Shown: piece after piece, positions 30,537 through 31,648 of the stretch
How the letters are laid out: each line of letters starts with the position of its first letter
How positions within the stretch are numbered: the first letter of the stretch is position 1
The notes under the pieces: model-generated
What the model was told of the DNA's origin: nothing
The model's database searches: none
The model's input: the letters and a program-made list of their open reading frames with translations, nothing else
Program-made: the position numbers and the translations under genes
IMG/VR virus record: IMGVR_UViG_3300045988_024106
Source of the DNA: a virus
Taxonomy: Duplodnaviria > Heunggongvirae > Uroviricota > Caudoviricetes
DNA: 44,656 nucleotides
Strand: one strand, 5' to 3'

Positions 30537-30728
30537 ATGAAACACGAATATGACCGCAAACCAGCACGCGGCATCGTACCAGGCGACATGATTTTCAACG
30601 TTAAGACCCGCCAGCCTGTTGCCGTTGATACGGTGTTCGTCGAGTCGAATGGTAAACTGGTTATCGAAGATGCGACCGGTAACGTTACGGCGTTCGGGCG
30701 TAAAGAGCTGGTGCTGGTGGCGAAATGA
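30537..30728 (+). CDS. Hypothetical protein
   Basis: 63-aa ORF with RBS AAGGA. Confidence 0.4.
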   Translation: MKHEYDRKPARGIVPGDMIFNVKTRQPVAVDTVFVESNGKLVIEDATGNVTAFGRKELVLVAK

Positions 30729-31648
30729 ACTATTACAATGAGTGGGATAAAGGCGCAGCCGCGTGGCTGCGTGAATTAATAAAACAGGGTCACATACCTT
30801 TTGGAGTTGTAGATGAAAGAAGCATTACAGAAGTTAAGCCAGAAGACCTCGACGGGTTCACCCAGTGTCATTTTTTCGCTGGTATTGGCGGCTGGCCTCT
30901 CGCGCTCAGACTTGCGGGAGTTTCGGAAAATACGCCTCTCTGGACGGGAAGCCCGCCTTGCCAACCGTTTAGCGCGGCAGGAAAGCAACTCGGACATTTC
31001 GACCCGAGACACCTCGCGCCGGTATTCCTTGACCTCATCAGCGAGTGCCGCCCTCCAGTCCTCTTTGGGGAACAGGTTGCACCAGCAATTGCAAAATCGT
31101 GGATGTGCGATTTACAAACTCACCTGGAAGGAGAAGACTACGCCGTCGGGTTTGCCGTACTCCCAGCTTGTGGCGTCGGCGCACCGCATAAAAGAGAGCG
31201 ACTCTTCTTTGGTGCGTACCAACTGGCCGACACCGACAGCGAACGATTACAAAGGGAGCGGAGAGACAGTGATTCGCAAGGACGGGAAGGACAGAACATT
31301 CGACAGGCTGGACTACTCAACGGAGCAGGGACTGAAAGCGGCATGGGGGACGCCGACGGTTCAGAATTCGCGTCACGGCAGCTACAGCGAGGCGGAAACA
31401 AAAAGAGACCCGAACAATCTGCACAATCAATGCTACCTCGTGGTGGCAATCCGAATCGCAGCTTCTGGTCGGATGCTGACTGGCTCGGATGCCGTGACGG
31501 AAAATTTAGGCCAGTTGAACCCGGCACATTCCCGCTGGCTAATGGGATACCCGCCAGAGTGGGACGATTGCGCGGTTACGGCAATGCTATCGTCCCGCAA
31601 GTAGCTGCAGAATTTATAAAGGCGTTTATGGGGGCCATAAATGAGTAA
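30725..31648 (+). CDS. DNA (cytosine-5)-methyltransferase with two compensating frameshifts (+1 near 31219-31220, -1 near 31572-31576)
   Basis: Frame A holds motifs I (FFAGIGG), IV (PPCQPFSAAGK), VI-like (GEQV), VIII (APHKRERLFF) and X (GYGNAIVPQV); the middle segment with NWPTPTANDYKG and LNPAHSRWLMGYPPEW is in the frame of ORF 30813..31604. Confidence 0.6.
   Translation: MNYYNEWDKGAAAWLRELIKQGHIPFGVVDERSITEVKPEDLDGFTQCHFFAGIGGWPLALRLAGVSENTPLWTGSPPCQPFSAAGKQLGHFDPRHLAPVFLDLISECRPPVLFGEQVAPAIAKSWMCDLQTHLEGEDYAVGFAVLPACGVGAPHKRERLFFGAYQLADTDSERLQRERRDSDSQGREGQNIRQAGLLNGAGTESGMGDADGSEFASRQLQRGGNKKRPEQSAQSMLPRGGNPNRSFWSDADWLGCRDGKFRPVEPGTFPLANGIPARVGRLRGYGNAIVPQVAAEFIKAFMGAINE

Follow-up and report, generated by a model that had tools for sequence, protein, structure and literature searches.

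We examined a pair of overlapping, same-strand reading frames in the virus sequence IMGVR_UViG_3300045988_024106, a 44,656-nucleotide (nt) stretch of DNA that we refer to, at its full length, as the window. The window is a Kagunavirus-like Escherichia coli siphophage most like EcoPhCCP1 (98.1% identity); ZCEC5 (94.4%) ranks second and the K1G group third. At positions 30725–31648, frame A is open from an ATG at 30725 to a TAA stop at 31646–31648, and a second open reading frame (ORF), in the +1 frame, is nested inside it and ends at a stop at 31602–31604; we call the two genes alpha and beta. A preliminary description of this DNA reported frame A with C5-cytosine methyltransferase motifs I, IV, VI-like, VIII and X, as well as the +1 ORF with WPTP and WLMG motifs, and both are as described. 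It took them for one methyltransferase gene whose target-recognition segment lies in another frame. The features of the locus are as follows.

30725–31648, plus strand: alpha gene (frame A; ORF list), 307 amino acids (aa), catalytic chain of a C5-cytosine methyltransferase (motifs I, IV, VI, VIII and X)
30803–30815, plus strand: beta start signals, comprising a GGAG Shine-Dalgarno sequence (30803–30806), a 6-nt spacer and an ATG (30813–30815)
30813–31604, plus strand: beta gene (+1 frame; ORF list and phrog_1008), 263 aa, nested inside alpha, 'Mte8-like'
30872–30892, plus strand: frame A motif I, FFAGIGG
30953–30985, plus strand: frame A motif IV, PPCQPFSAAGK
31064–31078, plus strand: frame A motif VI, FGEQV
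31178–31210, plus strand: frame A motif VIII, GAPHKRERLFF
31220–31465, plus strand: low-complexity stretch of frame A
From 31221, plus strand: +1 ORF peptide NWPTPTANDYKGSG
31515–31562, plus strand: motif-IX-like segment of the +1 ORF, LNPAHSRWLMGYPPEW
31574–31615, plus strand: frame A motif X, GYGNAIVPQVAAEF

Alpha belongs to the C5-cytosine methyltransferases. The Pfam family PF00145 (DNA_methylase) matches aa 74–167 with 59.4 bits against a cut-off of 22, and M.HhaI aligns to alpha with an E-value of 4e-8, FFAGIGG pairing with HhaI motif I. Motif IV (PCQ), an ENV-like motif VI and a QxRxR-like motif VIII are present in the DNA_methylase domain, along with motif I (FxGxG) and a GNAV-type motif X helix, the latter assigned by pattern and giving no significant profile match. 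The Pfam match ends at aa 167, and neither a folded target-recognition domain (TRD) nor motif IX was found between motifs VIII and X of the same chain; aa 166–247 are of low complexity, lack amino-acid constraint and are predicted with a local distance difference test score (pLDDT) below 50. Beta matched no family in Pfam or NCBIfam and gave no match in PDB sequence and profile searches, and its motif IX is likewise assigned by pattern, with no significant Pfam or PDB match. In the PHROG database the two chains fall into separate families, both labelled DNA methyltransferase: phrog_363 covers alpha over its full length and phrog_1008 covers aa 3–258 of beta. Splicing the frames into one protein gave a Pfam match no better than that of frame A alone, and searches of the C-terminus against PDB and Pfam, whether as spliced motifs IX and X, as frame A or as beta, returned no methyltransferase match for any of the three.

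Two further observations concern the ends of alpha. The order of its N-terminal motifs seems permuted, with YYNEWDKGAAA, which aligns to M.HhaI motif II (HhaI aa 37–47), lying upstream of FFAGIGG; alpha aa 3–56 correspond to window positions 30731–30892, FFAGIGG aligns to HhaI aa 2–33, and the N-terminal strands predicted by AlphaFold2 fall at aa 2–5, 27–30, 47–50 and 72–75. At the other end, the TAA at 31646–31648 overlaps the start, with its ATG at 31641, of a downstream gene for a 474-aa SNF2-type helicase, which suggests translational coupling of the two genes.

The two-frame layout is not peculiar to the window. We examined 91 related loci, comprising 80 IMG/VR loci, one Logan contig and named phages among them, and in all 91 both frames are open and stand in the +1 relation, with the beta ORF nested in the alpha gene, while the third frame contains 5–22 stops over the same span. 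These loci come from phages of E. coli, Salmonella, Klebsiella, Burkholderia, Pseudomonas and cyanobacteria as well as from metagenomes, and their GC content ranges from 0.51 to 0.73. Throughout, frame A carries motifs IV to X and the +1 ORF, of 211–764 codons, carries WxTP repeats and W-L-M-G-x-P. Distant phages with the layout include K1G, Salmonella phage epsilon15, Burkholderia phage BcepC6B, EBPR podovirus 2, Cylindrospermopsis phage Cr-LKS3, Pseudomonas phage PMG1, Klebsiella phages and Komagataeibacter phage phiKX1. The overlap can become very long: in locus L010 the +1 ORF encodes 762 aa and frame A is open for ~820 codons, with a stop-free middle of up to ~650 codons. Relatives of beta form 10,084 clusters at 50% identity. 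The number of WxTP modules on beta is two in the window, one in K1G and 1–11 elsewhere, and it varies between close relatives; single-linkage clustering placed 679 of 887 modules in one cluster, indicating one repeat family in which this clustering resolved no discrete cassette types. Among E. coli genomes, family members occur only as prophage orphans, and no adjoining restriction enzyme was seen in the two loci inspected.

The preliminary description had proposed that, should frame A alone align end to end with intact methyltransferases, the WPTP and WLMG motifs of the other frame would be a coincidence. Thousands of annotated methyltransferases do align end to end with frame A, but the second part does not follow, as the +1 motifs are not coincidental. 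Selection on the two frames was mapped in a codon alignment of 84 non-identical sequences, using the third-position entropy at 4-fold degenerate sites among codons for the majority residue. The locus divides into the following blocks.

30725–31030, plus strand: only frame A selected (YYNEWD, motifs I and IV); beta frame merely kept open
31031–31215, plus strand: first dual-coded block, alpha motifs VI–VIII over the beta N block, SSASAALQSSLGNRL...IYKLTWKEKTTPSG...ASAHR
31216–31465, plus strand: only the +1 frame selected; alpha a low-complexity linker that is kept open
31224–31343 and 31344–31445, plus strand: the two WxTP modules of beta
31466–31573, plus strand: second dual-coded block, the alpha C block WSDADWLGCRDGKFRPVEPGTFPLANGIPARVGRLR over the beta C block ...ASGRMLTGSDAVTENLGQLNPAHSRWLMGYPPEWDDCA (motif IX-like)
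31574–31648, plus strand: only frame A selected; motif X, GYGNAIVPQVAAEF, and the alpha C-terminus

Over 30725–31030 the synonymous sites of frame A are free to vary, with a mean entropy of 1.82 bits ahead of the +1 ORF (30725–30812) and of 1.64 bits at 30813–31030, where the +1 frame averages 0.49 bits. Within the N block (31031–31215) frame A falls to 0.95 bits, many sites having values of 0–0.4, and the +1 frame stands at 0.67 bits. At the first WxTP module (31216–31250) the mean for the +1 frame is 1.53 bits, and across the middle region the variability maximum lies at phase 1 of frame A, which is phase 3 of the +1 frame. Both frames are again low in the C block (31466–31573), at 0.56 bits for frame A and 0.75 bits for the +1 frame, and from motif X to the end frame A returns to 1.58 bits (31574–31648) as against 0.43 bits in the +1 tail (31574–31604).

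A direct comparison of the window with ZCEC5, which differ by 52 substitutions and no indels, gives the same map. In the first block (30725–31030), 10 of 12 changes are synonymous in frame A and 11 of the 12 are non-synonymous in the +1 frame; in the middle region the situation is reversed, with 15 of 19 changes synonymous in the +1 frame and 16 of the 19 non-synonymous in frame A, and the frame in which changes are synonymous flips from A to +1 exactly at the block borders. Over ~140 nt at 31461–31604 the window retains 80–88% DNA identity to the methyltransferase genes of a cyanophage, Burkholderia phage BcepC6B, Pseudomonas phage PMG1, EBPR podovirus 2 and Klebsiella phages, and we attribute this high identity to the selection of two frames at once. 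The data show that both frames are open, that each has defined blocks on which purifying selection acts, and that beta is preceded by start signals of its own. Within the C block the window departs from ZCEC5 at six positions, and every one of these changes is silent in alpha and alters an amino acid in beta: beta aa 219–234 (31466–31514) read ASGRMLTGSDAVTENLG in the window and EcoPhCCP1 and ASGQMLTGSAAGMENSG in ZCEC5 and the family consensus, which suggests local relaxation or change of the beta C block in the lineage of the window.

Whether either frame is open by chance was addressed by shuffling synonymous codons within each of the 84 sequences and then counting stops. With the +1 protein held fixed, frame A contains no stops in the middle region against 170 expected and is open in 84 of 84 sequences, the probability of an open frame A under shuffling being 0.155 on average and 0.01 for the window. 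The third frame, taken as a control over the same region, contains 365 stops against 369 expected. With the frame A protein held fixed, the +1 frame has one stop in the N block against 91 expected and 8 against 30 from the +1 start up to the N block (alignment columns 35–100); in the two control regions, upstream of the +1 start and after 31574, it has 120 against 130 and 52 against 43.5, with no depletion. It follows that ribosomes evidently translate frame A across the middle region, where only the +1 protein is selected, and that the +1 frame is evidently read from well upstream of motif VIII.

These results bear on the idea that the layout is an artefact or a product of decay, whether through two indel errors, through inactivation of the gene or through a single functional frame with by-product conservation of the other. 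GC-rich DNA can indeed hold alternative frames open, and the middle region of frame A is of low complexity, but we give this idea practically no chance. The layout recurs in every one of the 91 independent genomes and contigs across the whole range of GC content, the window shares 98% identity with EcoPhCCP1 and is free of indels relative to ZCEC5, the shuffling controls reject chance openness, and wherever one frame is conserved the other is constrained at its synonymous sites. The suggestion in the preliminary description of an inactivated gene or of indel errors is, for the same reasons, excluded, purifying selection acting on both frames.

The start of beta is marked in the relatives as well. 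Across the family, a +1 ATG preceded 8 nt upstream by (A)GGAG lies 68 codons before the conserved +1 region, and the alternative is an ATG at a distance of 74 codons from that region, with its GGAG 6 nt upstream. These conserved signals are built from codons that are rare elsewhere. In the column that forms the ATG, Asp is encoded by GAT in 55 of 63 cases (87%) against a background of 43%, and Arg is encoded by AGG, which creates AGGAG, in 31% of cases against a background of 9%.

The preliminary description had also considered that one polypeptide is made through two compensating recoding events, and its arithmetic is correct: skipping C31220 joins the Y codon at 31217–31219 to the N codon at 31221–31223, and re-reading G31574 joins the A codon at 31572–31574 to the G codon at 31574–31576. 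With a programmed +1 frameshift near 31220 and a −1 frameshift near 31574, the product would be an enzyme with the canonical order of motifs I–VIII, TRD, IX and X; selection on the +1 frame stops at 31573, right where motif X starts, and the rare natural variants P0162 and P0267 fuse frame A to the +1 frame just after motif VIII. We nevertheless regard recoding as very improbable, since it is contradicted at several points. Frame A is kept open through the very region that would be skipped, the +1 frame is open and under selection over the ~185 nt that precede the first shift site, frame A is already selected at 31466–31573, before the proposed shift back, and the +1 ORF has a Shine-Dalgarno sequence and ATG of its own. 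Members of the family differ, moreover, in how long the first junction is and in its sequence. A slippery heptamer was not found at 31205–31230 or at 31555–31585, nor an Rfam element at either junction, and the downstream folds at the two junctions are ordinary (z-scores of −0.63 and −1.10). Among the best 120 matches to the spliced query there was no natural single-frame protein with motifs I–VIII, WxTP, IX and X, and the matches consisted of P0162 and P0267, both A-to-+1 fusions without motif X, and of ordinary frame A proteins. Known programmed frameshift genes were likewise set aside as a model for the locus: the slippery site and stimulatory element are absent, and the zero frame is open past the junction in every locus.

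A natural experiment separates the two readings of the C block. In a Kagunavirus relative (L095, from Logan ERR6120405) and in phiKX1 (L008), a gene for an HNH endonuclease (Pfam PF01844, 22.8 bits against a cut-off of 21.4) is found in the +1 frame inside the C block; the region concerned is 601–1869 in L095 and ~1600–2110 in L008, equivalent to ~31520–31560 in the window. The C block is duplicated around the HNH gene in both. In the upstream copy the +1 reading survives (GQLRPGHSRWLMGFPIYWD, followed by a stop) and that of frame A has drifted (RPVEAWTQQMVDGVPDILG); in the downstream copy the frame A reading survives (FPLGADIQARVARLRGYGNAIVPQ) and a stop interrupts that of the +1 frame. The two readings of the C block are thus conserved independently of each other, which again argues against an artefact. 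Frame A is open through the entire HNH gene, ~170 codons. The arrangement looks like the insertion of a homing endonuclease into a highly conserved target.

Structure predictions were made with AlphaFold2 from alignments of database proteins. The alpha model is confident over aa 1–165, the C5-methyltransferase core, and over a helix at aa 291–306 (pLDDT ~90), and leaves the linker and the conserved C block unplaced with pLDDT below 50; Foldseek matched it to M.HhaI, M.HaeIII, Dnmt2 and DNMT1 over ~170–200 columns. The beta model is confident only at aa 76–124, corresponding to the N block (a helix at 76–95 and a hairpin at 101–124; pLDDT 81–90), and of moderate confidence at aa 237–256, the motif IX region. 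Foldseek returned no meaningful structural neighbour for the beta model. That conserved segments do not fold alone in these models would fit chains that fold on a partner, as no more than a hint.

A precedent for such partners exists. M.EcoHK31I, a heterodimeric C5-methyltransferase of E. coli HK31 with the specificity YGGCCR (Lee, Kam & Shaw 1995), has a beta chain encoded wholly in another frame of the alpha gene, according to the passages devoted to it in PMC2836561 and PMC3404938. In those same passages, alpha holds motifs I–VIII as well as motif X, beta holds motif IX, activity needs both chains to be associated, N-terminal deletions of beta weaken its association with alpha, and internal Met codons can be used as beta starts (PMC2836561, PMC3404938). 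The family resembles this enzyme in several respects. The beta ORF is nested in the alpha gene in a different frame. The separation of motif IX from the other motifs may have a counterpart here, agreeing by pattern but with no significant Pfam or PDB match for motif IX of beta. The beta chain of M.EcoHK31I can do partly without its N-terminal portion and can be initiated at internal or alternative sites, which we count as a likeness, and the requirement of its N-terminal region for association fits the conserved and confidently folded N block of beta described above. The M.EcoHK31I chains, of 309 aa (alpha) and 176 aa (beta), are also near in size to the 307-aa alpha and the ~180-aa constrained part of beta in the window. 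There are differences too: M.EcoHK31I is a member of a restriction-modification system, whereas the gene in the window is an orphan that lies within the replication module of a phage, and the predicted TRD of M.EcoHK31I is on alpha, whereas here the variable region of alpha is an unconstrained linker and the conserved WxTP modules are on beta. No match in any of our searches bore the name M.EcoHK31I, and the names of cluster members provided no link to it either.

Taken with this precedent, it is probable that 30725–31648 holds two same-strand genes in two frames that encode an alpha/beta C5-methyltransferase, M.EcoHK31I-like by layout, and we infer that both chains are synthesised, that they assemble and that beta sets specificity. 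Frame A, read from the ATG at 30725 through the TAA at 31648, would give an alpha chain made up of the core with motifs I–VIII, a variable low-complexity linker, the conserved C block of 36 aa and the helix of motif X. Separate initiation at the GGAG...ATG of 30813 would give the beta chain, whose functional part (31035–31574) would consist of the N block, two WxTP modules and the motif-IX-like C block, its first ~74 residues being unconstrained. By analogy with M.EcoHK31I the two chains would associate to form the active enzyme, with the N block of beta and the C block of alpha as likely contact elements. Beta would supply motif IX and also, on our own reading, the target-recognition modules. 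The preliminary description was right that a segment resembling a TRD plus motif IX lies in the +1 frame and belongs with the methyltransferase; none of its three explanations holds.

The part of this proposal that concerns recognition can be taken further. The WxTP modules stand just before motif IX, the place of the TRD in canonical enzymes. It is conceivable, if somewhat doubtful, that beta rather than alpha carries target recognition as a string of 1–11 exchangeable WxTP cassettes, and that the family consists of modular, possibly multispecific two-subunit C5-methyltransferases.

Several points weigh against an alpha/beta enzyme of this kind. Motif IX of beta is recognised by pattern only, Pfam, PDB sequence and fold searches being empty. 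The alpha C block also fits R-x-V-x-P...G-x-P, and alpha could therefore be self-sufficient. The first ~74 beta codons lack amino-acid constraint, and in a few loci (L010, L016 and L051) there are +1 stops within them, beta starting ~11–45 codons before the N block. The likeness to M.EcoHK31I is one of described layout, with a motif distribution that agrees by pattern. In this family, production of both chains and a need for both in methylation are supported only indirectly, by the purifying selection on the two frames and by the separate Shine-Dalgarno sequence and ATG of beta, and binding of alpha to beta is presumed. Finally, the predicted TRD of M.EcoHK31I is placed in alpha, not beta, in the passages on that enzyme (PMC2836561, PMC3404938).

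These points leave room for beta to be a real overprinted gene unrelated to methylation, for example one with an anti-defence or DNA-binding function, with alpha complete and its own C block acting as a minimal recognition element or motif IX. The C block of alpha (RPVEPGTFPLANGIP...) shows conservation of its own, which persists when it is parted from the beta reading, beta has no detectable similarity to solved structures or Pfam families, and thousands of database entries name alpha alone as a methyltransferase. We think this unlikely, given that beta ends in a motif-IX-like L-x-P-x5-W-L-M-G-Y-P-x-x-W immediately before motif X of alpha, that alpha has no conserved, foldable variable region, and that the pairing of alpha with beta is universal in the family. 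The sole biochemically studied enzyme with such a layout, moreover, requires both chains, as stated in the part of PMC2836561 that deals with it.

Other systems share single features with the proposed alpha/beta methyltransferase. M.AquI is a natural split C5-methyltransferase in which two chains, divided in the variable region, must assemble (PMC3404938). Its chains are consecutive (motifs I–VIII on alpha, IX–X on beta) rather than nested over hundreds of codons, whereas motif X is on alpha here. In the orphan C5-methyltransferases of the Bacillus phages SPR, phi3T, rho11s and H2, the variable region holds several recognition modules that are related to one another and arranged in tandem. Beta, with its 1–11 WxTP modules, resembles these multispecific enzymes in having tandem modules, but they are single polypeptides in one frame, and WxTP modules are candidate TRDs by their position. 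With overprinted same-strand genes of viruses the locus shares the +1 relation and the suppressed synonymous variation in dual-coded blocks, but such genes encode novel accessory products, whereas the nested product here seems to form part of the enzyme on whose gene it is overprinted. The overlap is also unusually long for a double-stranded DNA (dsDNA) phage, at ~790 nt in the window and >2 kb in L010.

Existing annotation of the gene pair is uneven. In K1G the depositors recorded each of the two ORFs, one as "C-specific methylase" and the other as "Mte8-like protein", whereas alpha alone is annotated in RefSeq bacteria and epsilon15 and beta alone in EcoPhCCP1 (L094) and Cr-LKS3 (L005). In some E. 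coli genomes the pair carries a pseudogene label; PGAP, for instance, splits a prophage copy (L091, ECCTRSRTH03) into two pseudogene pieces. In the alpha gene of ZCEC5 (L093), a TAA removes the last 12 codons. We also observed rare indel-fused variants in metagenome assemblies (P0162, P0267, P0099, P0130, P0164 and P0205), which may be real or may be assembly errors and in which frame A is fused to the +1 frame after motif VIII or motif IV, or the +1 frame to frame A; because both frames are open, any indel gives a long chimeric ORF. In two further cases the beta ORF runs without a stop into a downstream domain, an NPPY-type (Dam-like) adenine methyltransferase in P0140 (497 aa) and a Cas4/PD-(D/E)xK-like nuclease with a CxxC cluster in P0138 (758 aa), which could be true fusions or could reflect a missing stop. 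In the literature on Mte8, WPTP, overprinting with methyltransferase, and Kagunavirus methyltransferases, we found no description of dual coding.

The layout itself is of a known, rare kind, the nested-beta C5-methyltransferase. What is new is that it is the rule for a very large family of phages and prophages with clear dual-coding signatures: an arrangement known from a single enzyme is now that of a family of ~10,000 beta clusters at 50% identity. To our knowledge, few conserved overlapping gene pairs of dsDNA phages and bacteria are as long as these, with their ~260–760 codons of same-strand overlap. Such a pair is easily mistaken for a frameshifted gene, by a reader or by a pipeline, and the family offers a clean natural system for the study of dual-coding constraint and for the engineering of split methyltransferases. 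If beta is the recognition chain, a specificity subunit would have been overprinted on a catalytic linker, and the textbook placement of the TRD on alpha in M.EcoHK31I would need revision. If it is also true that beta carries exchangeable specificity cassettes, the gene pair would give phages a compact route to diversify their anti-restriction methylation.

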